DNA of 64,000 nt from Cladosporium halotolerans. Taxonomy: Eukaryota. A model generated the notes under the pieces. It had not been told where the DNA came from. It ran no database searches and saw only the letters and a list, made by a program, of their open reading frames with translations. The number at the start of each line of letters is the position of its first letter. The stretch's first letter is position 1. The translations under genes and the position numbers were made by a program. The stretch covers positions 186,001 to 250,000 of the forward strand of contig NW_027191479.1 in NCBI RefSeq assembly GCF_011745625.1, in the 5' to 3' direction. Below are positions 45,846 through 64,000 of this stretch, piece after piece.

Positions 45846-46237
45846 TCCCGGCCGCGGCGTCGCAATCGAGTCTGGTCCCGCCGGTACCCTGCGCTCTCCG
45901 CGCACGCTCGAGGCACCGCGGTTGCCTGATCCTGTGCATGCCTAAGCCCCCAAGGCCCTGACCCTTCTCACACCCTCCCGTGCATTACACCACCACACCC
46001 TCTGGCCAGCAGCCAGAGCTGCCGCAGGTAGGTCCCATCTATATATCCCCTCCTCCCGCCCGTGTCCGCGCCCTACTCCTCCTTCCCCCAATCATACCAC
46101 AACACATCTACCATTCGACGCCTTCCTGTCCGCCTTCCAAAGCATCACTGCCCAAGCAACCACCAACCGCCCACCCAATCCTGTCGCAACCCCACTGGCC
46201 CAGCTTGCCGCCCAGGCACAGCACGTCACCGCCCACA

Positions 46238-47116
46238 ATGCCCACCCGCGGCACCAAGCCCATCATCATCGCCGCCGCCCCCTCCACCACCACCACCTAC
46301 ACCACATCCAACCTCTCACCCTCCACCCCGCCCTCGCCCAAAACCGTCCGCTTCGCCCCGCGCTCCGACGAACTCCCCTCCCGCCCCGCCACCTCCCAAG
46401 AAGCCTGGTCCCTCTACCACTTCGAGAACCACGCCCACGGCTGCGCCGCCTGCCACAAGGCGCGCCGCAGCCTCCTCTGCGACACCGGCTACCACCTCGC
46501 CCAGGACGTCGCCGTTCACGTCCGCTTGCACGCCGGCGAGCTCTGCAGCACCCGCCCGGACGACGACGGCAAGCTGCTCCGCGTCGAGATCCCCCACGGC
46601 TACAATAAGGTCAAGACCCTGTTGGGCGCCGAGGCCAAGGGCAAGAAGGTGAAGAAGAGCGCGCCGGTCGTCAGCTACGAGGACGCGGAGCGCAGGCGTT
46701 CCTCGTCTCTGTCGCCCCGCAGGAGGGACCGCGAGCACCACCGCGAGAAAGTGACGGTCGAGCCCTCGCGCTCGTCGCACGAGGAGAAGCGCGCCTCGGC
46801 TGCGAAGCCCAAGGCTAAAACCCAACACTACGCCACCGTCGAAGTCAAGCCCATCGCCGGGAACGACAGATTCCACGAATACGAGCAGGGCGGCCCCGTG
46901 CGGCTGCCCGAGCGGCCCAAGCGCGGCAGCTTGTACGAGGCTGATATGAAGCGGCCGCGCAAGGAGTTTAGGATCGAGGAGCGCGCGCCGTTGGAGAAGA
47001 AGGTTGAGCGCGGGCGGGATCGTGAGAGGGAGAGGGAGGAGAGGAGGGAGATGAGGAGGCGGGAGAGGGAGAGGGGGCCTGAAGACAGGGAGAGGGAGAG
47101 GAGGCGCGTGTATTGA
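46238..47116 (+). CDS. Hypothetical protein with His/Cys cluster and Arg/Glu-rich tail
   Basis: Strong C-ending codon bias from ATG 46238. Motif FENHAHGCAACH...LCDTG, RVEIP and a terminal RE repeats region. Confidence 0.7.
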   Translation: MPTRGTKPIIIAAAPSTTTTYTTSNLSPSTPPSPKTVRFAPRSDELPSRPATSQEAWSLYHFENHAHGCAACHKARRSLLCDTGYHLAQDVAVHVRLHAGELCSTRPDDDGKLLRVEIPHGYNKVKTLLGAEAKGKKVKKSAPVVSYEDAERRRSSSLSPRRRDREHHREKVTVEPSRSSHEEKRASAAKPKAKTQHYATVEVKPIAGNDRFHEYEQGGPVRLPERPKRGSLYEADMKRPRKEFRIEERAPLEKKVERGRDREREREERREMRRRERERGPEDRERERRRVY

Positions 47117-48115
47117 GAAGTTGTGCAAGGGTGAGCGGGCTGGTTCGCGCTCTGGGGTTGTAATTTCTTGGTGATTCGCTGGTCGATTTTGGGGAGTGGT
47201 AGTTTTGAATGGATGGGTGGGATGATGGATGGAAAAGATACCCCGGCTTTGAGTCTTAGAGTCTAATGGACACATGGAAGGAGGATACACCGTACAGGTG
47301 ACGACAGATGAAAGAATGAAGACATCTTCGCATTGCTCACTCTCGTTCTCTTTCGCTCATGTCCTTGACCTGTGGACCGAGCTTCGTGTGCCGTCCGTAT
47401 CGTTCTGTCATGTCAACGACCCTAGAAGGGTACAAAATGACCTTCAGACCCGACTTGAGATATCACACGTTTATGACATGAACTCCGAGCCACCCGCATG
47501 AAAAGCACATTGCCTGTAGTGAGGTGGTTGTCATCGCTGAAGTCTAGGTCCCACAATTCCTGGCTGCTCCCGCGAAGCTTGAAGGGACGACCAGTGATGA
47601 AGCTTTGAGGAAGCGCGGACTGAATTCCAGAGTTGACAGCAACCATGTTCAACGAAGGCCTTCACGAAGCGTTGATGTCGCGTCAGGCGACATATGCGTA
47701 TTACCAGCCTCGATACTACCAATGATGGACTGTACGCTCTAGGACCGGAAGCGGTCTTAGCAACGCGCATGTGAATCCACGTTCGCAGTTGCGACAAGGC
47801 CTGGACGCTGTCATGACGACTGTTCGTTGGACGCACAAACATACAACGACCGTGGACTCGAGACTGCAGATGCACAGCCGCGTCGACCGTAAGGCGCAGC
47901 TCTGGCTTCGCCACCCTGACCGGTGAGAGTGGGCGCAAGTTCCACACCACGAAAGAGGGAATCAGCCTGCTGGCCATGCAAGCCTCATGCACCTTCCAGC
48001 TGGCTCTCTGAGTACTTCAGGCCCGGTCTGAGCCTTCCAATTTCTGGTTCCTTCTCTGGTTCTATCGTTATCCATTGCGAGATCATCGCTATTGCCCTTA
48101 GTCTCCGCAGCTGAC

Positions 48116-49964
48116 ATGTCTGATGCTGACCTAGACCCGCAGGCGGAGTCGGCAGAAAATGCGGCTAATGCAGGAAATGTACCAAAAGATGCAGCACAAC
48201 CCACTCCTGACGCGCGAGGGTTCTTTGAGAGACTCAGAGATGTCGTCGGAGAGGAGCGGTTCAAAGACTTCGAGTACGCCACTTTTCGCAAACAGCGATC
48301 TCGAGTGAGAATCTGCGGCGATCAAGGGACGCAAATCTTGGTTTCTGGGGGATTGGTTTCTGGGGAATTCGAATCCATGGATTGGCTCACATCCGGCGTA
48401 CTCCGGGAATCCACATCGACGGTGACGGGTCGACCTGAGCGGGCGGTGATTATCGTCGAAGACATTGGCCATCGCTGGATTGAGAAGTTAGACGCGGCCT
48501 TCGGCATCGACCCTCTATTTGTCCTGGCATACGCTCGTGGAATAAGGGATGGCCCTCAAAGAATGGAAACGAAGTTGAGGGAACGTTCGCACCCATTGAT
48601 GGTCAACGGCAACTCCTTCTCGGACAACATCAAGGGCCATTGGGCCATGTTTCAATTGTCCACATTAATAGAACATTCTGATTGGCGCGAGTTGGAAGTT
48701 ACACGTGCGAAAGACCCCTGGTGGTTTTATAGGGCTCTTACAGACGAGTGGCGAGATCGTTGTGAGATTATGCTCACACTGGGATGCTGCCAACTGGACA
48801 AGAATACATGTAAGCACGATGAGTCTATTTGAGAGGGTCTGGGGATGGATATCGACCTCTAACGATCCCGCAGACCTTCTCGCTTCGGATTCTCCGCCAG
48901 ATTCACGCTTCCCGCGCAATATAGACCTACTGAGACCGGCTGGTCGAATTCGATCGCTGGACTACGAGATGCCGTGGTGTCTGAGGCAGTTCCCGCAAGG
49001 CGCATGGTTTGATACGCTAAATTGCTTGACAGAGGCCTTCAATCCTACTATTGCTGGGGAGTTTTACGGTCTCACTTTCGACCTGATTTTCGGTGTCAAT
49101 TTCACCAAAACCCCACAAAAGCTGAAGGGAACCCTATGGGAGAATGAAAGGCAGGTGGAATATCGGTTAAGAATTCTAGCGCAGCTCTTGTGGCCACTTG
49201 CATGGCGCCAAAACGTTTCAGCTTTGAGGGACAAGCTGGAGGCTCAGCGATATGCAGCGCTTCTTTCGCCTTCCGGTTCGTCGTACCGGCCTCTTATCAC
49301 TCTGCGTCGGGCCGTTGCAGATACTCGAGCTGCTATCGTCAATGTAAAAGGCAGCATTGCGTCTCTCACTGAGGAGACCATTCAAGCGATACAAACAGAT
49401 CCGAAAATGACGCTGAGCGGGGTGTATGAGTCTCTTTTGACCGAAATCGACAATATAAATGGGGAGCTGAACGATGACATCCAGCTGATCATCGGCGCGG
49501 TTACGATCCAAGATTCCGAGGCGATGAAGCTACAAGCTGAGCGGGCTACATTGCTGACTCTACTCGCAGCAATCTATTTGCCTTTGACTCTTGTGACTGG
49601 AATCTTTGGCATGAACACACAAGAAATCAACGGTGCGAGTCCATCGTTCAAAGCTTGTGTCCAAGCATTGGTCGTTGTGGCAGTTGCCACGGGTATCTTT
49701 GTGCTCAGCCACTCGCGTTTGAGGCATTGGCAGAAGACACAAGAGCAGCGGCGTCGAGAAAAGGAGGTGGCCGAGCGTAAAGATCTTAAGGCCTTGTTCG
49801 AAAGAGCATCAAGCGATGGAACTCATAAGGGAAATAGCATCAGCAAGATGGGCAAGGCGGTAGAGATTATCAGAAAGGGCTGGGAGGCACCCAAGGCCGC
49901 AGTTTCGAAGGTCGTCAAAAGGAAGCGCAGAGCGTCGCCAGGGGCTTCACTGGAACTTGGATGA
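48116..49964 (+). CDS. Fungal CorA-like membrane protein
   Basis: Intron 48810..48873. C-terminal helical region followed by LLTLLAAIYLPLTLVTGIFGMN (GMN signature) and a second TM segment. Confidence 0.75.
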
Positions 49965-51113
49965 CGAAGATAATCCGGTATGGGCCGCCGTCAATGACTC
50001 GATTGCCTCTGATCCGATTTCATGCCGTGGTGGCTTGCAACCGCCATATGGCAGATGTGTCAGTTGCACGTGAAGCGTCTGCACGGCCGGTTTCTCCCGC
50101 GAGACGGAGGACTTGGAATGGCAGATGGGGCCAGACGGAATAATTACAATGCGCCACGCCGGATTGGCTGGCCGCGGAATCAAGGAAGCCACGGAAAAGC
50201 GGTGCCGTAGAGGACTCCTACTCTCCAGCTTCCACAGCGAAAGACGTCTGCTTATGAAGAGTGAGGCAACAAGATCGCGAGTCCTTTTTCGGCAAACCGG
50301 AACAGCGACACCAAGACTTGGTCGTCACAGGCAAGTCACGTTACTTGCTCGGGCGCCGGCAGCAGGGCCGGCGGGTGACGAGGCTGGAGCTCTGGATTTG
50401 GCTTTTTTCCCCGCATTGCGGAGATGCGGCACGGCGAGAGGGTGGCACGGGCGGTCGGATGGGGCAGCAGCAGAGCAGCAGCTGGCCGGCAAACCACGCG
50501 GCGTGAGAGCTGAGCTGGCCGTTGTCGCGCTGATCCGGACACAAGCAAACCATGTACAATAGCATTAGCCTTCCCGGCGGCCTGTACTCACAATATACAT
50601 CTCACGTCTCACCCCCTATACTGTTATGCCACGTTGAAAGCCACTCGTCTGATCCTCACGCTGTTGACCGTTCAGCTGCAGCCGTTGAATGCGTGACGCG
50701 GGGTCGCACTGCCCGCCAGAGAGCTCCCGCCAGCTCCTCAGCCCTCGTGAGTCCGCCATCTCGTCCCGCCCAGCCAGCGCGAGGCGACGGGGATAATCGG
50801 ACGTCCACGCGCCCATGGTACCTTTCCGAGGGTATCTGCCCCAGCGCCAGAGCCTCCTCGTCGCAGGCACGCACTTAACTTTTGCCGATGACGGACTTCC
50901 TGCTCTTCTGCTGTTCACTACACTCGAGACCTGATTGACTGACCGGCGGGCAATAGACTTGCCAGCATCCTGTGTGATCTTGTCTTTTCTTGTGGACAAC
51001 ACCGAGACATAAGACAAGCTCCACCCACCTCTGCATCGAGCCGCCCACGAGCCTCGGCCGCCTTGATCGACCTCCACCTCCTCTACCACGATCCCAACCC
51101 ACCCCTAGACAAG

Positions 51114-52139
51114 ATGAGCTCCGCCGTAGAAGCGGCCAAGAGAAAGACCGAGGCCGCAGTGACCACCGCCAAAGATGTCGCCGCCGACGCCCCGGCCGTC
51201 CTGCAAAAGGCCAAAGAGAACCCCAAGCAGGCCACGCAGGACTTCCTGCACTCGCCGCTCATGCGCACCGCCCTGCCCTTCCTCAACGGCGGCGCCGCCG
51301 GCATGGTCGCCACCACCGTCATCCAGCCAGTCGACATGATCAAGGTCCGCCTACAGCTCGCCGGCGAGGGCGTCAAGACCGGCCCCAAGCCCACCCCTCT
51401 CAGCGTCACCCGCGAGGTCATCGCCGCCGGCCGCGTCCTCGACCTCTACACCGGCCTGTCCGCCGGCCTCCTCCGCCAGGCCGTCTACACCACCGCCCGC
51501 ATGGGCTTCTTCGAGACCTTCATGAAGTCTCTCACCGCCCGCGCCGAGCGCAACGGCACGAAAGTCGGCTTCGCCGAGCGTGCGGGCGCCGGCCTGACCG
51601 CCGGCGGCCTCGCAGCCATGATCGGCAATCCGGCCGACCTCGCCCTCATCCGCATGCAGTCCGACGGCCTCAAGCCCGCCGCTCAGCGCGCGAACTACAA
51701 ATCCGTCGTCGACGCGCTGGCGCGCATCACGCGCAGCGAGGGCATTGGGGCCCTGTGGAACGGCGCGTACCCGACCGTCGTGCGCGCGATGGCGCTGAAC
51801 TTCGGGCAGCTGGCTTTCTTCTCCGAGGCCAAGAGCCAGCTGAAGGACACGAGCCTGAGCCCGCGCGCGCAGACGCTGACGGCCAGCGCGGCGGCGGGGT
51901 TCTTCGCGTCGTTCTTCAGCCTGCCGTTTGATTTTGTCAAGACGCGCTTGCAGAAGCAGCAGAAGGGTGCGGACGGTCGCTTGCCGTACAGGGGTATGGT
52001 GGATTGCTTCCAGAAGGTTATGAGGGAGGAGGGTCCGCTCAGGTTTTACCGTGGCTTCTTGACTTATTATACCAGGATTGCGCCGCACGCGATGGTCACG
52101 CTGATTGTTGCTGATTACCTTGGTTTCATCACAAAGTGA
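51114..52139 (+). CDS. Mitochondrial 2-oxoglutarate/malate carrier (SLC25)
   Basis: Three carrier signatures (PVDMIKVR, PADLALIRMQSD, PFDFVKTR), GLLRQAVYTTAR and RIAPH. Confidence 0.93.
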   Translation: MSSAVEAAKRKTEAAVTTAKDVAADAPAVLQKAKENPKQATQDFLHSPLMRTALPFLNGGAAGMVATTVIQPVDMIKVRLQLAGEGVKTGPKPTPLSVTREVIAAGRVLDLYTGLSAGLLRQAVYTTARMGFFETFMKSLTARAERNGTKVGFAERAGAGLTAGGLAAMIGNPADLALIRMQSDGLKPAAQRANYKSVVDALARITRSEGIGALWNGAYPTVVRAMALNFGQLAFFSEAKSQLKDTSLSPRAQTLTASAAAGFFASFFSLPFDFVKTRLQKQQKGADGRLPYRGMVDCFQKVMREEGPLRFYRGFLTYYTRIAPHAMVTLIVADYLGFITK

Positions 52140-53282
52140 TGATGGTGATGAGGTCGGCTGGAGAATATGAATGACGATTTGAGAGGTTAAGAGATTGGAT
52201 TTTCGCGCGAGAATGGATGGGTGCTTGGACATGCCGGAGTAATAAGAATCCTACCGGGACGAGGAGGATCATGAGCATGGATCGTGGCGTCGGCGTATAT
52301 TCTTTCATCTGCGATGGAGATTTCATCAATGGCCATAGTGCCAGTTGTCTCGTCGTGTCTCGTAGCGTTTGAATGAAGCTGGTCTCTCACTAAAGCAAGC
52401 CGGCCTTTCAAGTTCTGTCACTCGTGATTCTTGCGATGTTGTCTGGTGCATGGTTGGTTGAGGAGCAGTCTCTCGCGTCGTGTTGCTCGCACGCTGTTGT
52501 CTGACGAGGGAGGGGTGGACGTAAAAGTCTCGTCACTGAACGGAGTCTGGAATCCGAGCTCGACCTGAGGCATCCGACACTTGTCTTTCCAGCATTTAGC
52601 CGATGGACAACAGTACGCAGAGAAGATGCTCTTCATATTTGTATTAGCCAGACAGACGGGGAAGGATTCATTGTCCCTTGATAATGATCATAATTCTCCC
52701 TTTTTCACAAAACGAAACGCTGAAAGCATCCTCATGGTGATGCTGCGAACTGCCACTGACGGACGATACGAGACGTCTCAGGCATTTGGATACGCTGGAA
52801 TTCGGTCGACGACTGCGCATATTGCGAGTTCCCAATGGCAAATTGCGAAGAAGGCCGTGAGCTCAAAGTCGAAGAAGAACTATCATCTGCACAAGGGAAG
52901 TCTTCAGTGTCGTTCCAGAAAAGTGTCACAAATCAACATGGCTCTTCAAGCCTTTGCAGGGTCCAAATTGACTGATCGGCGAACCATGCGGAGTCGCGCG
53001 CCGCGTCTTCTGAGCCAGCACTTCCGGCTGTGACAGCTACAAACCGCTTGCCTCAGGCACCTGACCTGGCACGCCAGCACGGCCAGCATGCTAACTCAAT
53101 GCGTTTCGAGATAGAGTTATCATTATAAGTATATTACTTCCCGGAGAAGCGCCGGACTCACCCATGACAATGCTTACCAATATGGAGGCAAGCAACGCAA
53201 CAAGTGCAATGGCTCCTCTCGCTACTACTGTACTCGAAATGTCACAGTCTTTACTTCTACACAAGCATCGTTTGTCAAAATC

Positions 53283-54368
53283 ATGCCGGCCCCAGAAAAG
53301 CCGTTTCGCCCATACCTTGAGCGGTTCAGAGACACACAAGGTCCTGGAGACCAACGCCCTACCGCTGCTGAGGTCGTGAGAGACCAGCATGGCGAAGGCA
53401 AATTGCATGGCAAGGTAATCCTTATCACAGGCGGCACCGGTGGTCTTGGACTGGAATCTGCGAAAGCCTTGCAGTTGACTGGGGCAAAGATCTTCGTCAC
53501 TGCTCGCAGCGAGGAGAAGGGAAAGGCTGCTGTAGAGGCCCTCTCACAGAATGAGACAGCCGTGGCTCCCGAGTTCATTGTCATGGATCTGGCGAGCGCA
53601 AAGAGCATTCGGTCTGCCGTTGCACACTTCAGTGCACGAAGCCCGAGGCTTGACTTCTTGATCACCAACGCCGGTGAGTGGCATCATCGACCAAGAGATC
53701 CCAGATCAAAAGAGGCACTCACACTTCGTCTAGGTATCATGGCAACTCCCTACGGACTCACCGAGGACGGCCACGAACTGCAGCTCGGCAGCAACCATTT
53801 CGGCCACTTCCTACTATTTCGCCTGCTCGAACCCGTCTTGGCCGCTTCCGGCACAGCCACCACGCCCAGCAGAGTCATTGCCCTCTCCAGCGCCGGACAC
53901 CGCTTTGGTCAATTCCGCTTCGACGACATGAACTTCGAGAAAGGCCCCTACGACCCGCTCGCCGCCTACGCTCAGTCGAAGCTGGCCAACATCTGGATGG
54001 CCAACGCGATCGATCGCCACTACGCGCCGAAGATCCGCGGCTTGTCTGTCCATCCGGGAACTATTTTGGAGACGGGTATCACGCGCCATTTCGAAGCGGA
54101 CACGCTGAGCAGCGCGGGCGATCTCGAGCACTTCAACAAGACTGGTTGTAATGTCAGCCAGGGGGCTGCTACGACTGTCTGGGCGGTTTTTGAGCCGCGG
54201 TTCAATGAGTATGGTGGGGTCCATCTGGCGGAGGTTGGAGAGGCGCGTCCGGTCAAGGATGGAGAGCCTATTAATGTTCCGGCTTATGCGCCGTATGCTT
54301 ATGATCCAGAGGGGGAAGAGCGCCTTTGGGAGTTGAGCAATCGGGCTGTTGGATTGTCTGCGGATTGA
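53283..54368 (+). CDS. SDR, retinol dehydrogenase/WWOX-like subfamily
   Basis: TGGTGGLG, NAGIM after removing intron 53674..53733, NHFGHF, YAQSKLAN, VHPG and QGAAT. Confidence 0.9.
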   Translation: MPAPEKPFRPYLERFRDTQGPGDQRPTAAEVVRDQHGEGKLHGKVILITGGTGGLGLESAKALQLTGAKIFVTARSEEKGKAAVEALSQNETAVAPEFIVMDLASAKSIRSAVAHFSARSPRLDFLITNAGEWHHRPRDPRSKEALTLRLGIMATPYGLTEDGHELQLGSNHFGHFLLFRLLEPVLAASGTATTPSRVIALSSAGHRFGQFRFDDMNFEKGPYDPLAAYAQSKLANIWMANAIDRHYAPKIRGLSVHPGTILETGITRHFEADTLSSAGDLEHFNKTGCNVSQGAATTVWAVFEPRFNEYGGVHLAEVGEARPVKDGEPINVPAYAPYAYDPEGEERLWELSNRAVGLSAD

Positions 54369-54606
54369 TTAATGACCTGTGATACAGTCGGGTTAAAAGT
54401 CGTTGTACGAGGCCACAGAGGTGGTTGTCAATGATCTATGAGCATAGGCATCACTGTGCATTGGCCACCTGAGTCGATAGATTGAGCTGGTATACTCTAC
54501 AGCCTTTGAACCGTTTATGGCCTCAATGCCTGAGTGAAGACCCAAGACCCGGGTCCTCAGTATATTCGACCAAGCGAGCAACCGTCCCATGTCTCAGGTC
54601 CAGGGA

Positions 54607-55659
54607 TCAGATACGAATAGTCTGGGTGCAATCGCGCTGGCTCTTGACCGCAGCGGCAGTCTGGTTGCCAGCACCAGCACCGGAGGCAGAGGCAGAGCTA
54701 CCGCCGCCAATCGGCACAGAGAAGCCCTCGATGTTCTGGCTCACAGCATCGCTCCAGCCAGCCGACGTGCCAGCGCCGTTGGCAAAGTATGCGCCGGCCT
54801 CGGCGTCGCCCTGGTACAGCCACAGCATCCAGTTGGCGGCGGCTTCGGCGAAGAGCCCACCGTTCGGCTCGCCGTAGGTTCCGCCGTGGCCGACGCTGTT
54901 GAGGTTGCCCTTCCATGCGGGGAGAGTGGAGGAGAGTGCGGCGTAGTCGCGCTCGCCCTGGGATCCGATGTCAGTATACAGAGCTACACATTGGCCCGTG
55001 ACAGACGAAGTTGTTGATCGCATGATGCGATGTGGGTCAACTTACGTTTCCGTAGGCGATATCGTTCGGTCCACCAAGAGCGAAGATGATTGGCTTGGTG
55101 ATCTGCCCGGCGAACTCGTAGTTGCCAAGGAGGCCCGAATTGAAGATGCCGATCGACGAGACGGCATCGTTGTCCTGCATCTGGTACGCTTCAGTGCCAC
55201 CACAGCTGTATCCCGCAGCCATGATACGAGAGCTATCGACATTCAAGCCGTTTGCTCCGTTGACGACCCATTCGACGGCTTCGGTCATCCAGTCTGCGGT
55301 CGTGGATCCGCCGTTGCCACCAGGGTTGCCGGACGCGATGGCGACGAAACCGTACGAGGCGACCTGGGCGAGGAAGTTCTGCGCCGATGTACCATCGTCG
55401 CTGCAGGCTCCGTTGCCCCAGACGAGCACTGGCATGGGGGTGTCGGGGCCCGATTCTGGGGCGTAGATCGTGTGTCTCGTCAGGGTATCATCGGTGGTGT
55501 AGGATACCGGGCCATATGGGCTACAGGAGTGTGAATGGTTAGCAATCGAACCCTAATGCCGGATGAAAAAGAACGCTCGTACCCATCGCCTTGGTTTTGG
55601 CGCTTGACGACTGCGGCCGATGCCGCGGTAGCAGCGAAGAGAGCGAAGGCAGCCTTCAT
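54607..55659 (-). CDS. Secreted alpha/beta-hydrolase (esterase) with GYSCG nucleophile motif
   Basis: Signal peptide plus KR; introns 55582..55521 and 55045..54958. PVLVWGNGAC, AAGYSCGG, LGGPNDIAY and GHGGT give a Ser-Asp-His triad order. Confidence 0.8.
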
Positions 55660-56360
55660 CGTGCCAGCACAAGAAGGATGAGTAAGGATTTAGTGAGATA
55701 AGGTCAATGAAAGAATGTCGAACTTAGGGCTTAGGGCTCGATTGTTTGAGCGGCGTCGTCTTGTATAAGTAGACGTTCTTCGGACCTCACTATGAACGAG
55801 ATCGCCATACTATGATCGAGCCCTCCAAGCGAGGGTTGCCGATATATTACAGAGCATCAAACCGTGACATGCATCGTGGAGGCAGCGACTTGGCGATTTC
55901 TGGGCGATGTATCGAAGATGAACTCTCTTCTTCGGTTCCAGCACTACCAACTCGATGGAGACGGTCACCCGTTGGCACGTTTTCTTGGCACGTGGTGATG
56001 CGACGTTTTCAGAGCAGCGGGCGTTTCGAGTTGAGCGATTGCCGGAGAGCCGACGCTGGCCTGGCTAGACGCGTGCGCTTGCGATTCATCGAAAACGATT
56101 AAGCGTCAACCTAGCAGCCACCCTGAGTCATGCTAACAACCTCTTTCTCCGCATAGCTTGAGTTATACGTGGACTCCGAACGATCAGCGAACAATTAGTC
56201 GTCTCAACAATCGGAACCAATGTAACGTTAGCACGAAGCTTATTGAGGGGGTCGGAAACGCTACTAGTCACGGCTTTCGCTTGAGAGCCGTCGAGGATGC
56301 TACTACTGCTGCTACTGCTTCTACCTAAACTACGATACTGATAGACCCTTGATCCTAAAC

Positions 56361-57490
56361 CTACGGAATCTCATGCAAAATTCGATCTCCTTCCTTCGGC
56401 GGCTCGAGGAAATCCTGAGGAACGCTATCTGGCATTTGACGTTCTTCTGCCCATCTCCTAACATCATCAAAGTTCCGGCAGATATGCTTGGTGTTGAAGT
56501 CCACGAAAGCATGAGGCATCTCATTCGGGTTTGATTGAATCCAAACTTGTCCGAGCACGCCGATGTCGATAGTACACATCAGTTGTTGGCGTAGGATATC
56601 AAGACAGTGAGCTGCATAATGTGAGATTGAGTTGAGCTTCCTGCATGTGCAAGCTGGGACTTACAGACGTGCTTCCGGACAATGTGTTCTTCATTCGAAA
56701 AAGCACCTTTCCCTTGAGTGTTATAATAGTTGAAGTTATAGTAGAGTGACTGTCGCAGAAGATTCTATCGCACGTTAGTCGTGGACAATTGAAACACCTG
56801 AAGTACAGCCTTACAAGACAGTGCAATTGATGTCTTTGAATATTCATAGACTGCATCAGCTCTTGTCTACCGCTTGGTATCTGATTTGACTTACTGCGAA
56901 CAGTATCAGTCTTCGTCCGTGAAGGAGGCATACAAGGTTGACTTACCAAGCCTTCCACATTCGCTGGGTAACCTCCTCCATACTTCTTGTTAACCTTGAC
57001 TTGATCTCGGCGTAGGCCTGCCTGGTCTGCAAGTGTCTCTGGCACCGCAATACTACGATCTATGTTCTCCGTCAGCATTGCATTGTTGTGAGTATACTAG
57101 GGCGGTCGTACAGTTGACACCCAAACCCTCCCACGCCGCATCAACTTCGGGGCTCGCAGCCTGTCGGTAGATATTCTCTTTCAAGAGTGACCCGTTGAAT
57201 CTTTCCTCTTGGAACGTGATCTTGACATCCTCGGTGATAGGTGATGTCCGGGTCACCACGCAAGTGCAAGAGGCAAAGCGATACCACAACATGAATCCAG
57301 CAAGTAGCTCAAGAATAAGTAGAACGATGACTATCACGAGAATGGTGTTCTGGAGCGGTACGAAGCCAATGCGACTTGATCGTTTTTGGCAACGCCCTTC
57401 CGACGAGCCGACCAATTCTTCGCACTCATGATCGTCGCCCAGTGAGGCTACTTTCCCATAGCGTTCGCCCCAATGAAATAGTGATGCCAT
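56361..57490 (-). CDS. DUF3328 / UstYa-family oxidase (fungal RiPP macrocyclase type)
   Basis: Exons 57490..57112, 57059..56948, 56833..56815, 56764..56665 and 56611..56361. N-terminal TM, VDAAWE, EGLHQLHCLNLLR and HVSHCLDILRQQLMC (two HxxHC motifs), HICRNFD. Confidence 0.93.
56834..56947 (-). other. Candidate [D1,2] stwintron (intron nested within a splice donor)
   Basis: Minus strand reads TT-G|GTAAGT...CTGAT...CAG|TAAGTC...CTGAT...AAG|ACATCAA. Removing 56946..56894 rebuilds a GTAAGT donor, and the second excision yields EGL-HQLHC. Confidence 0.75.
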
Positions 57491-58792
57491 GTTGCCCAAG
57501 GTCACCAAACGGATGAACAAGAAGAGCCTCGGACGTCAAGATCTTAATAATTCGACAGGTCTGTAATATGGCAGGCGGATAAGCCGTCAATCCTAGACAC
57601 ATCGCGGTCGTGCGTGACTTGCCTCGAGACGTAAACAACTCACGTGGGGCCAGGCTTGCGCCGACTTCAAGAGTATTGGAACCGCTCACCACACTGTTAT
57701 GCATATCGTTTTACCACCTTACCAGTCATGAATCTGGAACATCACACTGCGGTTGGTGTTGTTAAAGGGTGAAGGCGCTGATCTCACGACCGTTCGGTAG
57801 CATGAATTGGTCTCGCCACCATGGCAAAGCGCGGGACGCCACAATAGCTAGAGCTCTTCAACTGCGCAGCACGCACTACCTGGGTATCGATAGCGGGGTG
57901 ATTACAACGCGACTCGGACGTCATGTCATACTCAGCATCTGTGTGAGCGTGCACAAATTTCTAATCAACAGCACTACAGTAGTAACTCGTCCCTACGAAA
58001 GCTTGACCAGCTTGGCAGGCTCAATCAAGATTTCTTATGCGAATGCCAATGGAAGCGCTAGGCTAGGTGAGTTCACGTTGTTGTTGCTACGACCTTCTTG
58101 AACCTTCCAGACGCCATGACTGGTGATCACGTATCTGCATCAGGGCAGATCTCGCCATCAATGACACAGAATATCTCAAAGTGTTCCGGTGTAGACACAT
58201 CTTCGGATAGCGAGAGGTCTGCCACTCGGCCCACTGTCTCTATGTTTCCGTGGCTGGAAGAGTCGACACGGGAAGACAAGAAAACCTCCGGCACGATACT
58301 TTCAATAGTGCTTACGGTTTTGTGAAAAGAGAGACTCCTAGATCGGGTTCGGAGCTTTCAGATCTCCAGGATGAAGCAGTGTTGACCAGCTTTCCCCACT
58401 GAAGACGCGTTAGCGTCGCTCGTCGAACCGAGAGCCATGTCCAAAGGTGGACACGATGGTCCCTCAGCTTTCGGGAGAAACCTAGAAAGTGTCATTTCTA
58501 TTGAACGGCGGCCTGCACCAGTTGTGGTGACGATCTCGTCACCCTGAGTGCAGCTCTGCTGATGGTCACGTAATGTCTCGGAAGTAGGAAGCTTGAGCAG
58601 CGACTTCAGCGGGCGTGAGGAGACCAAGCCTTGCAAAGGCATATAAGACTTAGAAGGCGCGGAGGGCGAAGCTATATTGCTTCCAAGTCAGTTCTCACTC
58701 TCAGGTTCTTGTTGACCAGTGCCCCGAATTGACGTTCCTACTTCCAGCATCTACATAGCCTTACCGCACCTACGGGTCACACATTCGCCGTC

Positions 58793-59140
58793 ATGAAGCT
58801 CACAACCTTTACGCTTATCTTCGGAGCGTCTCTATCAACAATTGGTAACGCAGCACCGGTGGACAGGAAGCCTGAAGCTGCTGAGGTCTCTGTAAGAGAC
58901 CCAGCCGAGTACTCCGACTATGGCTCGTACCCGCCACTAGCAGGAGGCTACGGCGAATACTCCAATTATGGGACATACCCACGCGACGCCGATCCTGAGC
59001 CCCAGCCTGAAGCACTCGAAGCCCGAGCAGGATACGGGAAGTACAACCCCTACAGCAAGTACGGCAAATACGGCAAATACGGCAATTATGGCAGCTACAA
59101 GCGCGAGACTGAGGCAGAGGCCGGACCCGAAGCTGCGTAA
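58793..59140 (+). CDS. Secreted Tyr-rich Kex2-processed repeat protein; putative RiPP (dikaritin-type) precursor
   Basis: 115 aa intronless ORF: signal peptide, basic cleavage sites (VR, PR, AR, KR), X-P/X-A acidic spacers and 15 Tyr in YxxYxxY register. TATAA at about 58642. Divergent from the DUF3328 gene. Confidence 0.85.
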   Translation: MKLTTFTLIFGASLSTIGNAAPVDRKPEAAEVSVRDPAEYSDYGSYPPLAGGYGEYSNYGTYPRDADPEPQPEALEARAGYGKYNPYSKYGKYGKYGNYGSYKRETEAEAGPEAA

Positions 59141-59499
59141 TGATACTATTCGAAAGCTTGGATGCGATGAACAGGTGGCGTTGAATGACCAAAATCAATA
59201 TTCATGGTGGTGCTTTCCATTCATACACGTTCAATTGTGCCGTTCTTTTTGATTTGAGATGGATATGAGTCGAAAGTACTGTCCTCAGCTTTCCCACTCA
59301 TCAGCTTGAAAATCTGTCTTGTAAATGTATCAGCTTGACTGCTTAGCAAAAATACCTGGTATTCTTTCAATATCGTCGCTCGTCGATGTCCCAGAATATG
59401 CTCGGAAGCCAACGCTAGTGTCGTAGGAGTACTCCTTCCGACAGAAATTGGTCGTTGGAGGGGTGTCTCGGCCCGACGGTTCTCTGCTAGCGACGAGTT

Positions 59500-59687
59500 T
59501 CGCTAAACTTCAACAGCTGCTCGACGTCTGCATGAACTTTAACGTGAAGAAGTGCGGTTACATAGCACCGTCGAAAAGCGGTGGCGCCGCCTACCTGAAC
59601 GGTGAGGAGATGCCGCGAGTGGAGGATTACACCTATCTTGACTCTGACATGACGGGCGCCGGGATTGCTTTCACCAACGCAGATTAG
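59500..59687 (+). mobile_element. Relic of non-LTR (LINE) retrotransposon reverse transcriptase C-terminal region
   Basis: LQQLLDVC..FNVKKCG...YLNGEEMPRVEDYTYLD resembles the LQxLL...FNxxKC...YKYLG segment after the RT YADD motif. It is short and degenerate. Confidence 0.55.
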
Positions 59688-60071
59688 GGAGGGATCTGAA
59701 GATGCCTTTCAAAGATTAATAGGCTAGATCTCGGGCTACGAATCGAATCCTCACCATAGTTAGAGAACAGCGACCTAAGATTGACCATGTGATCACCGTG
59801 CAGAAACAGATTGACTCGGTCGCTTGACGAGTCGTGGGGAGAGTATGTACGGGGTTGATTGAATCAGTTGACGCAATGATTCGGGATATGCAGGTGTCAG
59901 GTCTTGCTCTGTCGTCTCGATGGGTGAAGCGTCATTTGCAGGGTCCAATTCGAATGATCCGCAAGCGACGCGCTGTCGACTGCGCGCGTCGCGTCTTCCC
60001 ATCGCCGACTTTCAACACTACTTTCGCTCCCGTCCTCAACAACACAACGTCGAGAGACAGGGACCTCAAAT

Positions 60072-61454
60072 ATGTCAACAAGGACCCGCCGCTCCGTCGC
60101 ACCAACCGCGACAGCGCCCTCGCCATCCCAAGGCCGACCCTCGTCCACAGCAACCCGCTTCGAATACGAACGACCACAATTCACTCTCAACCCGGACGCT
60201 CAACGCGCCCTCGCCGACCTCGTCCGCAAACACAACCTGAACAAGCTCGACAAAAGCCTGCAAGACGCTCAAGATGCCGTCACGGTCTCTGCGGGCGAGA
60301 TCAACGATCGCCTGAAAGACAAGGAGAACGCGAGCGTGAAGCTGCGCGCGCGGCTGCAGCACCAGCAGCAACAGGAAGGTGGCGGAGGTGATGATGCCGA
60401 TGTGGAGGCTTTCGAGGCCGATCTGGCGCAGATGAAGGTTAAGGTAGAGGCCATGACGAAGCGCATGGAGGAGGGTATGAGGAAGATGATCGATGGGCAG
60501 CATGCAATTATGGCTATGAAGGAGAAAGTTGCGGGCGCGGCGGAGAGCGCGAGGGAGGGCGCGAGTACGCAGGCGAGTACGCTCAATACGCGTAGTCAGG
60601 GCAGGAGGAGGCGGGAGGGAGATGGGGAGGAGAGAGATGAAGGGACCGAGGAATACCAGGACTTCACTCCTACGGATCCAGCGGGAGGCACGCAAGCTGT
60701 GCCGAGTATCAGCGAGACTTGGATGCAGCAGGTCGATGATGCGAAGACGAAGTATCAGAACTTCACGATGCAGCAGCGATACGCGCAGAACAACAATTAT
60801 CGCAATTTCAAGGGCATCGTGCACGGTGCGCGCTATCCAGATGGCGAAGTGGAGCTGCCGCATGAGAGCGCTTGGTTCGATGAGGCTCGCGCCGTACCTG
60901 AGCCTGGCGTCACGGGTGCTGGAGCGGATGATGATGAGGAGGACGATGACATCCAGATTCAGCGCGCGAAGACCAGCACCAAGTGTCCACTCACACTACA
61001 GGAGTTCAAGCAACCGTTGACTAGCACGAAGTGCAGGCACAGCTTCGAGGCCAGCGCGATCCTGGAGATGATCAAGAACTCGCACGAGACGGTGGGAGGA
61101 CATCCGGGCCCTCGCGGGAGGATGACTGGCGGAGAGAAGGCTGTGCGGTGCCCTGTCGGCAGTTGTGATAACATGCTTACGAAGAACGATTTGCACAAAG
61201 ACAAAGTCATCATACATCACATCATGCGCCTGCAACGAGCAAAGAGGCTGGAGGAGGAGGAAGCAGAGGACGATGATGAGGGCGAGGAGAACAATGGCAG
61301 GCCTCAATTGATCGATAGCGATGCTCCGGATCCTGATGATTACCGTCGGCCGGTGAAGAGAGAGCCGAGGGCATCAGGCATGTCAAGAGCGCCTGCAAGC
61401 TCGCCACCTAATGGCTTGGATGAGGATGGCGATGCGACAATGGAGCAGTGGTAG
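60072..61454 (+). CDS. NSE2: SUMO E3 ligase Nse2/Mms21 (Smc5/6 complex), SP-RING finger
   Basis: Coiled-coil N-terminus, then DDDIQIQR..KCPLT...STKCRHSFEASAI...CPVGSC. Confidence 0.88.
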   Translation: MSTRTRRSVAPTATAPSPSQGRPSSTATRFEYERPQFTLNPDAQRALADLVRKHNLNKLDKSLQDAQDAVTVSAGEINDRLKDKENASVKLRARLQHQQQQEGGGGDDADVEAFEADLAQMKVKVEAMTKRMEEGMRKMIDGQHAIMAMKEKVAGAAESAREGASTQASTLNTRSQGRRRREGDGEERDEGTEEYQDFTPTDPAGGTQAVPSISETWMQQVDDAKTKYQNFTMQQRYAQNNNYRNFKGIVHGARYPDGEVELPHESAWFDEARAVPEPGVTGAGADDDEEDDDIQIQRAKTSTKCPLTLQEFKQPLTSTKCRHSFEASAILEMIKNSHETVGGHPGPRGRMTGGEKAVRCPVGSCDNMLTKNDLHKDKVIIHHIMRLQRAKRLEEEEAEDDDEGEENNGRPQLIDSDAPDPDDYRRPVKREPRASGMSRAPASSPPNGLDEDGDATMEQW

Positions 61455-62108
61455 GACGCATGTGTTAGAGCGTGTTGTAGATTTTCTATCACAGGCATGC
61501 CGATTTGGGCGCGTTCTGATCGATACCCCATGAGTGAATGTAAGACCTTCAATGTGATGAATCGCTTATCGGCGATACCCCAGACCCTGAAACTCCATTC
61601 ATTGCTGATCTTATTATCATGCATAGTTGCAGCATTACAGAGTCTGACAAATCCCCAAGCTTTTCTGCCGCGTATTGCCCAGGCAGATCTTGAAGATAGC
61701 AACGAGCATAGGAGAGTCCGCATAATGGGCCCTGAAGACTGCTGGCATGGACCATCAAATTGCCGGCTTGGCTTTACCCCAGAATCGGCTAACGGCTGGG
61801 TCGAAGAAGCCAGACCTGCCCCGAAGCTACCGTACCTTGTCGTAATCTTGGCTGTTCCACCTGTCCATCTGCGTGCTGTGAACCTCACCACCCGCACTTC
61901 CACCACCTCACCCGCCCCATCCCTATTGTGTCGCCTGGTGCAGTCGGCACTCCACACCTATTTCCTCCGCCTGCCATTGATTAGTCGTGCGCATGCACAC
62001 TTCCGCAAACTAATCTTCCTGGTCTCATTGTCCCTGTCCATCGGCACGGATCCCAAAGTCTACCGGTCACCTCTATCCGATTTGAAAGCTTCGACACCCG
62101 TCTGAAAT

Positions 62109-64000
62109 ATGTCTGCCGAAGCATCCAACGCTGCCAGCGCCAGCGCTGACGTCCCGACGTCCGCGGCTGAGCGCCTTATGCAGCAGCACGCCGCCGACGA
62201 GGCACACAAGGCTACGGTACGCATCCGTCCCGAGCAAATGGATGGAGGGATCTGCGGGGACGGGAAATCGTTCGGACTTTACTGACTTGCAACACTCAGG
62301 TCGAGGAGATTCCCGACGAGGACGCTCCTCACCCAATGCCTTCTGCCGCGCCCTCGCTGCCCATTTCTACCGACCCGTCTCGTGTCCAGACCCCTGCTCC
62401 CGATGCCAGCGTCTCTTCCAAGGCTGCTGGCAAGCAGCCCGCTCGCGAGAACAAGCTCGACACCCAGTCTGAGGAGCTCTTCCCAGCCCTTGGTGGTCCC
62501 AAGGCCGCTGCTCCCGCCGCCCAGTCTCTGTGGTCTCGCAAGCCTGCTGCCGTCGGCAAGGCTCCTAACGGTACCTCCAATGGCATGAACGTTCCTCTCG
62601 CCAGCAACGCCTCTTCTCGCGCTTCGACCCCGCTTCCTGGTATCCAGACTCCCGGCTCGACTGCGCCGGCTCGTGGACAGCCCCAGATGAACCTTCCGGG
62701 TCGCCAGTCTGAGCAGATCGTCTTGGACCCCAGCATGCTGAAGAAGAGGGACCAGCTGAAGAAGCCTGTTTCTGAGGTTCTGAGGGATATCAACAAGAGG
62801 AGCAAGGCCAAGGTTGAAATGAAGAGCGGTCCTGGCGGTGTCCTCATCTTTGAGGGTACTGGCCCTACGGACGCTGTCAGGATTGCCCTCAAGGATGCTG
62901 CCAGCCAGATCTGCGCTGGCCAGAACATTTCTCTGCCGATTCCTGCCTCCATCCGCGGTCGCGTTGTGGGCAAGCAGGGTGCTACCATTCAGGCCATCTC
63001 TAAGCGCACCGGCGCCCGTATCAACATTTCTCGCCAGGAGGCTGCCGAGATTCTCGAGGACGACGATCTGGACCAGACTGTTGATGTCACGATCGAGGGT
63101 GACCCCTTCGCGGTTCAGATGGCCAAGCAGGACATTGAGAAGATCGTCAACGAGCACACTTCTTCTGCCAGCACTCGCCTGAAGCACATTCCCGCAGAGT
63201 ACTACCCCTTCTTGGGCAACAACGAGCGTCTGGCTGCTCTCCAGCAAGGCCGCGACCTGCGCATGCAGATTCCCGAGTACAAGACCTTCGGCCAGCAGGC
63301 ACCTCAGATTCCCGCCAACCGTGGTCCCGCCTCTTTCGCGCCCCAGGCCGGCTACCCTATCCAGCTCTCTGGTGACCGCCAGGCTGTTGCGGAGATGAAG
63401 GCCGAGCTAGACCGCCAGGTCGCTGAGCTTCAGCGCCAGCTCACCATGGAGCAGGTCGAGATTGAGCGCAACAGGCACCAGTTCGTTGTTGGCGATATGG
63501 GTTCTTCGATCAACGATTTCCTCGCTGAGACTGGCTGCTCCGTCATCATGCCGCCTGACGGACACGACGCTGACGAGCTGATTGTTGTTGGTCCTGCGGA
63601 CCGCATCGATCAGGCCGTTGACAAGATCCAGGATCTGGCTATGCGCATGTCTTCCTCCACTGCCGACATCGTCAAGCCTCACGCCAACGCTCCTCGCGGT
63701 GGACAGAGCCACGCCCGTGATGTCACTAGATACCTGCAACGCCGCCAGGCCATTCAGCAGATTGAGCGCCAGCACAACGTTCGCATTGTCCCTGAGGAGT
63801 CTGGTTCGTGGCAGATCTTCGCTGCCGATGGCAAGAACGCACTGAAGGCCCGTTCCGATATCATGAACCTCATCAGCGGCCACCCGCCGACTCGCTTCTC
63901 GCCTCTCCAGGTCGACCCCTTCTTCCACGAGCACATCCGCTCGCAGGCTGCCCGCCAAGTTCGCGATCAATACGGTGTACACTTGCTTGTTCCGGATGAG
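62109..64000 (+). CDS. SCP160: Multi-KH RNA-binding protein Scp160/vigilin (3' truncated)
   Basis: Intron 62217..62299. VEEIPDED, SEELFPALG, KH loop VVGKQGATI and repeated KH-like units; the frame stays open to the window end. Confidence 0.9.

Follow-up and report, generated by a model that had tools for sequence, protein, structure and literature searches.

A tyrosine-ladder precursor gene head to head with a UstYa/DUF3328 oxidase gene in Cladosporium halotolerans: a candidate dikaritin-type enzyme-substrate pair

In a 64,000-nucleotide stretch of the Cladosporium halotolerans genome (contig NW_027191479.1 of assembly GCF_011745625.1, positions 186,001 to 250,000; hereafter the window) a gene for an oxidase of the UstYa/DUF3328 family stands head to head with an open reading frame (ORF) for a 115-residue protein rich in regularly spaced tyrosines. 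Is the small protein the precursor of peptides that the oxidase modifies, or only its neighbour? An earlier note on this DNA, made from the letters alone, had proposed a minimal two-gene system for a peptide made on the ribosome and modified after translation (a RiPP) of the dikaritin kind. On balance we lean towards reading the locus as a dikaritin-type enzyme-substrate pair, in which a copper oxidase would modify the tyrosine ladders before a Kex2-type release of the peptides; judging from sequence comparison, the pair probably represents an undescribed conserved family of enzyme-modified secreted peptides. UstYa/DUF3328 enzymes were only recently shown to be binuclear-copper oxidases and few of their substrates are known; the locus offers a compact pair for study, with one enzyme and one short precursor, both transcribed.

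Both genes are real and transcribed. Transcript contigs placed on positions 56000-59500 came from X2 and X3, runs of the same organism, and from X23, a metatranscriptome (X23 and X24 are RNA libraries); X2 and X3 were taken as cDNA-derived because their contigs are without four introns. In the oxidase gene, introns 57060-57111 (X2, X3) and 56612-56664 (X2, X3, X23) are absent from the contigs. The 19-nt micro-exon is seen as 19 letters between the flanking pieces in X2 record 1 and X3 record 15; in X23 record 5 the piece 56665-56764 is followed by 35 letters, 16 of which are a loose end, leaving 19, and with the X23 loose end positions 56815-56833 run straight into the end of exon 2. In X2 and X3, k-mer depth was 30-100 times as great for the precursor contigs as for the UstYa contigs; since genes cannot be ranked by contig depth, this ratio was not used.

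The spliced oxidase matches PF11807 in its first exon (E 4.2e-9, 37 bits) and in its last (E 1.2e-9, 38.8 bits; cut-off 25 bits for both), and has two intact HxxHC motifs, HQLHC at residues 165-169 and HVSHC at 202-206. Its most hydrophobic 19-mer spans residues 50-68 (mean Kyte-Doolittle value 3.15). Hydrophobicity and the model of an orthologue (see below) give an N-terminal tail, a single putative membrane helix and a catalytic domain, the layout known for UstYa-type proteins, with a short tail and one membrane helix preceding the catalytic domain (PMC9632046, PMC12435403). The claim of a membrane-anchored DUF3328 protein with two intact motifs was thus borne out, but only after RNA-supported splicing, a splicing pattern that could easily escape automatic annotation.

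The intron preceding the micro-exon (56834-56947, minus strand) reads GG..AG in the window. No shift of the junction 56948/56833 yields a GT; the loose-end letters of X23 fix its position, and the piece lengths in X2 and X3 are consistent with it. Either the donor is genuinely non-canonical or the assembly has a one-base error (an extra G). In the same gene, three of the five related-strain differences found in X23 are synonymous.

The precursor ORF is whole in an X2 contig (58378-59161) and partial in contigs from the RNA libraries X23 and X24. It agrees exactly with the 115-residue reading frame described before, with all three of the core sequences quoted then. Its putative signal sequence, read by eye, has an M-K start, a hydrophobic stretch and a G-N-A|A-P-V cut, and this start is conserved in 16 aligned relatives. 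Fifteen tyrosines follow, at residues 40, 43 and 46, then 53, 56, 59 and 62, then throughout 81-102; 12 of the 14 successive gaps equal three. Contigs of a related strain in X23 carry 12 substitutions in the part of the ORF at 58793-59030, 11 of them non-synonymous, with no tyrosine lost, and one variant contig is wholly different from 59030 on, with another ladder sequence. The strict keeping of the tyrosine register while adjacent residues vary suggests that the tyrosines are used chemically.

The X2 precursor contig begins 415 nt 5′ of the ATG. Before 58378 it has a loose end of 73 letters, and one base is deleted at 58461; this upstream part could be a long 5′ untranslated region (UTR), could include an additional exon upstream, or could come from a chimeric contig.

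What kind of protein the precursor is becomes clearer from its relatives. A word-indexed search yielded three; a profile of four sequences was then run against 1.84 billion cluster representatives, matching 117 of them at E <= 1e-3 and 25 at E <= 1e-10, and a 16-sequence profile gave 94 matches in the named collection, where the members are all annotated 'hypothetical'. They span at least five ascomycete classes: Dothideomycetes (Cladosporium, Rachicladosporium, Zymoseptoria, Phyllosticta), Leotiomycetes (Mollisia, Mollisiaceae sp., Acephala, Pseudogymnoascus, Coleophoma, Amylocarpus), Sordariomycetes (Coniochaeta, Sporothrix, Niveomyces, Gaeumannomyces, Colletotrichum, Dactylonectria), Geoglossomycetes (Geoglossum) and Lecanoromycetes (Xylographa).

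These proteins share a plan. An M-K-hydrophobic-A-A-P start and a short pro-region ending in R-D or R-E are followed by one to three units, each with two tyrosine ladders joined by a PP-x-GG hinge and closed by K-R or R-R; spacers are acidic runs of X-Ala/X-Pro dipeptides, and a tail of the V-K-R-x-W type is often present. In the alignment of 16 members L8, A20 and P22 do not vary, and M1 and A21 hardly do; conservation otherwise falls on the tyrosines and on the arginine in the dibasic site, with Y102 and R104 nearly invariant. Motifs were counted by regular expressions on 171 sequences, fragments included. At least three YxxY occur in 168 of them; Y[KR]R occurs in 117, in two or more copies in 25; and in 68 a basic site precedes two or more X-Ala/X-Pro dipeptides. 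Of 497 ladders, 153 have KR, RR or PR as the next two residues and 148 have a proline pair there (PP, AP, PA, PS). KR-delimited repeats are clear in relatives such as P0004, P0243 and P0247. This comparison replaces the three short tyrosine cores suggested earlier by two long units of ∼25 residues, each consisting of ladder, hinge, ladder and dibasic site.

A C-terminal tail of the K-R-x-x-D-F-V-K-R-L-W-S type stands after the last core in 42 of the 171 relatives (P0004, P0010, P0020, P0022, P0243-P0245, P0248 and others); the window's precursor and the Cladosporium-type relatives are without it. The tail could serve for recognition or as a follower, or could be an amphipathic peptide in its own right.

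From these searches the precursors appear to form an unnamed, undescribed family of ascomycete secreted proteins. A Pfam scan gave no family for the window's precursor; among 17 relatives it gave no assigned family, with sub-threshold compositional matches to a plant glycine-rich protein (GRP) family in seven. The fungal literature searched gave no match to the core motifs (YGKYG and similar), the only matches being in two papers on animals; a Zymoseptoria gene identifier matched nothing, and the searched literature on DUF3328 and macrocyclisation gave no tyrosine-ladder precursor. In the Umemura tables of Kex2-processed repeat proteins (KEPs) none of the motifs tried was found, and none of eight family accessions tried occurs in Table S2 with its 7878 KEPs, where Phialocephala (Mollisia) scopiformis is represented by 20 other KEPs (PMC7329392). 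Within these sources the earlier opinion that the cores are unlike known products holds. One member has been listed before: g14174 of Venturia inaequalis, which belongs to the tyrosine-ladder family, was entered as an effector candidate, with no family assigned and marked as not up-regulated in planta (PMC9632046, supplement file 5); it may or may not lie in one of the nine dikaritin clusters of that paper. At least one plant pathogen, then, has a family member among its effector candidates.

A scan of loci with alignment A1 (the 16-sequence alignment A2 was too diverse for the purpose) returned 14. Eleven (L001-L006, L008, L010, L012-L014) are long, bacterial-looking ORFs ending in tyrosine clusters and were set aside; on inspection they resemble Wzc-type proteins, tyrosine kinases or co-polymerases, a class of false positives for (YxxY)n motif searches. 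The fungal-type loci are L007, L009 and L011, the first two being too short for an assessment of linkage.

The arrangement of the two genes in the window is as had been described, head to head and 1.3 kb apart (1302 nt between start codons), with transcript contigs reaching into the spacer from both sides, to 57715 (one X2 contig of the UstYa transcript) and to 58378. Does it recur? L011, a metagenome contig of 3498 nt, carries a 72-residue single-core relative of the precursor, whose splice model (2170-2318 joined to 2377-2446, with GT..AG ends) is sequence-based. A UstYa gene lies ∼1.24 kb from it, again head to head; its product is 58% identical to that of the window over 136 residues (E 1.6e-44), and its closest named relative among the matches listed is from Hyaloscypha (79%). 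The far-side neighbour in L011 encodes a coiled-coil protein, versus the Nse2 gene of the window. The spacers of the two loci share no k-mer beyond shuffled controls, with zero common 11-mers against a mean of 0.32. In Geoglossum umbratile the precursor relative (M1839_000997, KAI9775596.1) and a UstYa gene of the same clade as the window's (M1839_000998, KAI9775597.1) are consecutive on one contig of 101,775 nt.

A UstYa gene beside a Kex2-processed precursor is an established pattern in genome mining; what is new here is the variant with a tyrosine-ladder precursor. In the KEP survey (PMC7329392) a DUF3328 gene lies within the 15 nearest genes of 1758 of the 7878 KEPs, and the count of DUF3328 genes, 9399 across 1461 strains, is highest at the position adjoining the KEP genes; tyrosine is enriched in DUF3328-linked repeats (65.6% vs 38.2%). 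Two HxxHC motifs are described as a marker of RiPP-related DUF3328 proteins, and later definitions of dikaritins dropped the requirement for five genes (PMC12048977). The locus, with a two-motif UstYa protein adjoining a putative signal-peptide precursor, fits this current marker (PMC12048977).

Is the enzyme of a kind that could act on such a peptide? Relatives of the window's UstYa were taken as the best 120 of 385 matches, PF11807 proteins that are 50-70% identical to it over the catalytic domain; examples are from Aspergillus fischeri (63.6% over 236 residues), Neophaeotheca triangularis (59% over 279) and G. umbratile (50% over 286). The clade extends through Eurotiales (Aspergillus, Penicillium), Helotiales, Dothideomycetes, Lecanoromycetes and Chaetothyriales. 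An AlphaFold2 model of the G. umbratile orthologue P0153, built from a 62-sequence alignment (mean predicted local distance difference test score 77), shows a disordered N-terminal tail, then a helix at 38-67 and two helices, 150-164 and 184-204, that bear the two motifs. This modelled layout agrees with that described for CctR, the cyclochlorotine hydroxylase, a membrane-anchored, disulfide-linked homodimer in which HxxHC(x)nHxxHC binds two coppers; CctR needs O2 and electrons and has its catalytic domain in the lumen (Golgi, endosome, vacuole), and the asperipin cyclase AprY is reported to be Cu- and O2-dependent as well (PMC12435403). A sequence search of the PDB with the UstYa profile gave no match, and a Foldseek search with the P0153 model gave nothing at E <= 0.001.

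Several observations weigh against the enzyme-substrate reading. The main weakness is that the UstYa clade appears, from these searches, to be wider than the precursor family, so that the enzyme may have other or additional substrates: none of the 94 named precursor matches is from Aspergillus or Penicillium, where either the precursors are unannotated or too diverged for the profile, or the enzyme works on something else. Linked cases number three in total (the window, L011 and G. umbratile). Linkage of precursor homologues to DUF3328 genes had been set beforehand as a test; L011 and G. umbratile show it, but two genomes, those of Mollisia scopiformis and Mollisiaceae sp. DMI_Dod_QoI, have the only UstYa-clade protein among the matches listed on a scaffold that differs in length from that of the precursor. 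This non-linkage is not decisive because only the best 120 of 385 matches were considered and several genomes have two clade members. The UstYa gene of L011 has faults of its own: homology ends at a 37-nt inverted repeat (120-217; arms 97% complementary with 24 nt between them), which probably arose in assembly by folding back at the end of the contig, and comparison with a 97%-identical protein shows the frame changing just before the second motif. The precursor of the window has one canonical KR (103-104) and one PR (63-64) across two related units. The basic cleavage sites noted earlier thus stand in part, one being canonical while the first unit ends in P-R; likewise for the Kex2-processed secreted precursor, whose processing hallmarks are evident once the family is seen, but with a single KR in the window's copy. 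Finally, the cores of the family, at ∼25 residues versus 4-9, are several times longer than those of any known dikaritin.

Could the small protein be an ordinary secreted Tyr/Gly-rich peptide or protein, Kex2-processed or not, that the oxidase leaves unmodified? It would then be signalling, antimicrobial or effector-like, the UstYa enzyme would have another substrate, and the adjacency would reflect inherited synteny or a shared divergent promoter. Linear Gly/Tyr-rich antimicrobial peptides do occur in animals. The excess of the UstYa clade over the precursor family and the two Mollisiaceae genomes with the UstYa relative on another scaffold speak for such a view, as does the entry of the Venturia protein, in the table concerned, as nothing but a family-less effector candidate (PMC9632046). 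Yet the adjacency is found in three lineages with UstYa identities of only 50-58%, the far-side gene in L011 is unlike that of the window, and the strict tyrosine register amid changing neighbours suggests a chemical use of the tyrosines. We regard this explanation as unlikely, though it is the strongest of the alternatives. Adjacency by pure chance is very unlikely because a genome has only a handful of DUF3328 genes.

One could also suppose that the oxidase does act on the protein, with hydroxylation or oxidation of tyrosines cross-linking Tyr/Lys/Gly-rich chains into the cell wall, an adhesive layer or a pigment-associated matrix, and with no discrete small RiPP. Mussel adhesive proteins of the 3,4-dihydroxyphenylalanine (DOPA) type appear to resemble the cores in composition; the cores are long, of low complexity and rich in Tyr, Gly and Lys. 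DUF3328 enzymes include a proven C-H hydroxylase, CctR (PMC12435403). The named members come largely from dark-pigmented or surface-attached ascomycetes (Cladosporium, Rachicladosporium, Geoglossum, Mollisia, Xylographa, Venturia, Gaeumannomyces), a taxon pattern that is anecdotal. We consider such a matrix role improbable, since a dibasic site right after the last tyrosine of nearly every unit, followed by X-Ala/X-Pro runs, points to release of defined peptides rather than to a polymer.

If the pair is an enzyme and its substrate, the following course can be proposed. The 115-residue precursor would enter the endoplasmic reticulum by its predicted signal peptide. UstYa, which presumably crosses the membrane once and has a catalytic domain facing the lumen of the secretory pathway, would, by analogy with CctR and AprY, be a dimeric, O2-dependent binuclear-copper enzyme using the HxxHC...HxxHC site, and would oxidatively modify the ladders of both cores; the likeliest chemistry is cross-linking of tyrosine side chains, possibly several links per core. 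Processing through Kex2 and Ste13 is a familiar route for K-R-ended cores and X-Ala/X-Pro spacers. A Kex2-type protease would cut after the dibasic or P-R site right behind the last tyrosine of each unit, a Ste13-type dipeptidyl aminopeptidase would remove the spacers, and modified peptides of ∼24-29 residues would be secreted. We infer these steps (enzyme action on the peptide, type of modification, cleavages, secreted product) by analogy; polycyclic cross-linking of the cores is pure inference. Since Kex2 and Ste13-type enzymes act in trans, a 'minimal two-gene' pathway cannot be shown.

Should the enzyme act on the ladders, its products would far exceed ustiloxins, phomopsins and asperipin in size and would be more densely Tyr-linked, and the strong conservation of the enzyme would suggest a physiological role rather than a sporadic toxin; should it not, the family would still be an unrecognised class of abundant secreted fungal peptides. 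One could speculate further about an old system across several Pezizomycotina classes, in which a highly conserved binuclear-copper UstYa acts on tyrosine-ladder peptides to give a hairpin stitched by several Tyr cross-links, or hydroxylated, DOPA-like adhesive or pigment-associated surface peptides with a housekeeping role, and not a lineage-specific toxin cluster. We hold this doubtful; if true, it would mean a product class unlike any known dikaritin and a function for a UstYa clade found in most filamentous ascomycetes.

The coordinates of the pair and of its neighbours are collected in Table 1. A Pfam scan of 14 sequences in all included the ten larger flanking ORFs (45962-64000), none of which is a tyrosinase, a methyltransferase or a transporter of the major facilitator superfamily (MFS) or ATP-binding cassette (ABC) type, as the earlier note had held for the adjacent genes. 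The 64-kb window has no second UstYa gene, UstYa and precursor being present in one copy each, and no non-ribosomal peptide synthetase (NRPS). The gene set of the original five-gene dikaritin definition, as summarised in a later paper (tyrosinase, methyltransferase, several DUF3328 genes, transporter or peptidase; PMC12048977) is not what the locus contains.

Table 1. Coordinates of the oxidase-precursor pair and neighbouring genes (window positions)
Feature	Position	Strand	Basis or remark
UstYa/DUF3328 oxidase coding sequence	56361..57490	-	5 exons, 861 nt, 286 aa; Pfam PF11807 and splice joints of transcript contigs
UstYa exons (incl. stop)	57490-57112, 57059-56948, 56833-56815, 56764-56665, 56611-56361	-	contig joints; letters checked
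Micro-exon, 19 nt, with the entire first HxxHC motif (H165-C169)	56815..56833	-	contigs of X2, X3, X23
Intron interrupting the second HxxHC motif (HVS|HC)	56612..56664	-	GT..AG; joint 56611>56665 in X2, X3, X23
5′ UTR intron of the UstYa transcript, 62 nt, GC..AG	57561..57622	-	joint 57560>57623, one X2 contig
Divergent intergenic region, 1302 nt between start codons	57491..58792	.	gene coordinates; shared promoter presumed
Precursor ORF, 115 aa, incl. stop	58793..59140	+	ORF list, contig coverage, homologues
Predicted signal peptide, residues 1-20, cut before conserved A-P-V	58793..58852	+	reading by eye and conserved family start
Core unit 1, residues 36-64: ladder Y40,43,46; P-P-L-A-G-G hinge; ladder Y53,56,59,62; P-R	58898..58984	+	alignment to family units
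Acidic spacer, residues 65-78: five X-Ala/X-Pro dipeptides (DA DP EP QP EA), ending A-R	58985..59026	+	direct sequence reading
Core unit 2, residues 79-104: unbroken eight-Tyr ladder Y81-Y102 (every third residue), then K103-R104	59027..59104	+	sequence and family conservation
Acidic C-terminal tail, 11 residues, and stop; without V-K-R-x-W tail	59105..59140	+	family comparison
CorA-like protein	within 45962-64000		flanking ORF scan
Mitochondrial carrier	within 45962-64000		flanking ORF scan
Short-chain dehydrogenase (SDR)	53283-54368		flanking ORF scan; two genes from the pair, only reductase-type gene found
Secreted alpha/beta-hydrolase-like gene, several exons	54607-55659	-	directly downstream of UstYa; best solved relative dienelactone hydrolase, E 8e-6
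Nse2-type zinc finger	60072-61454		flanking ORF scan
KH-domain protein	within 45962-64000		flanking ORF scan

How does the locus compare with known systems? The nearest analogue is asperipin-2a of Aspergillus flavus (precursor aprA, DUF3328 cyclase aprY, reductase aprR, transporter aprT). It too has a single UstYa enzyme and no tyrosinase; its precursor is Tyr-rich and Kex2-processed, as proposed for that of the window, and its one oxidase forms ethers between Tyr side chains and beta-carbons (PMC6514808). The asperipin core, however, is the hexapeptide FYYTGY in many repeats, whereas the window has two cores of ∼25 residues with a tyrosine at every third position and a Pro/Gly hinge; the asperipin cluster includes the reductase and the transporter, and the window pair has neither directly beside it; and the UstYa clade of the window is broadly conserved and not confined to one lineage.

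Ustiloxins and phomopsins come close to what is proposed for the locus, with a signal-peptide precursor, KR-delimited cores, DUF3328 proteins with two HxxHC motifs and Tyr-centred cross-links (PMC7329392, PMC6514808). Their clusters, unlike the window, have a tyrosinase, a methyltransferase, several DUF3328 paralogues and many more genes, and their cores are of 4-6 residues (YAIG, YVIG, YVIP) in up to 16 copies. The epichloecyclin cluster (precursor gigA, DUF3328 gene gigB, methyltransferase gigC, and kexB) is small, and one DUF3328 protein is required to cyclise the Tyr-containing cores of a secreted multi-core precursor; it differs by a dedicated kexin and a methyltransferase, by cores of 8-9 residues with one tyrosine and by its restriction to few genera (PMC10540207).

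Yeast alpha-factor and fungal KEPs resemble the window's precursor in its predicted signal peptide, K-R-ended cores and acidic X-Ala/X-Pro spacers; alpha-factor differs in being linear and unmodified, and Saccharomycetes are without DUF3328 (PMC7329392). A feature search of the Atlas, useful for leads only, gave a best score of 0.82, with the alpha-factor cluster fourth at 0.79. On the side of the enzyme, CctR is alike in its N-terminal tail, single membrane helix and lumenal helical domain with HxxHC(x)nHxxHC binding two coppers; its substrate is a non-ribosomal cyclic peptide and its reaction a hydroxylation (PMC12435403). Compared with the known dikaritins, the family described here is set apart by a design of two ladders and a hinge, by few repeats and by a broad, conserved enzyme clade.

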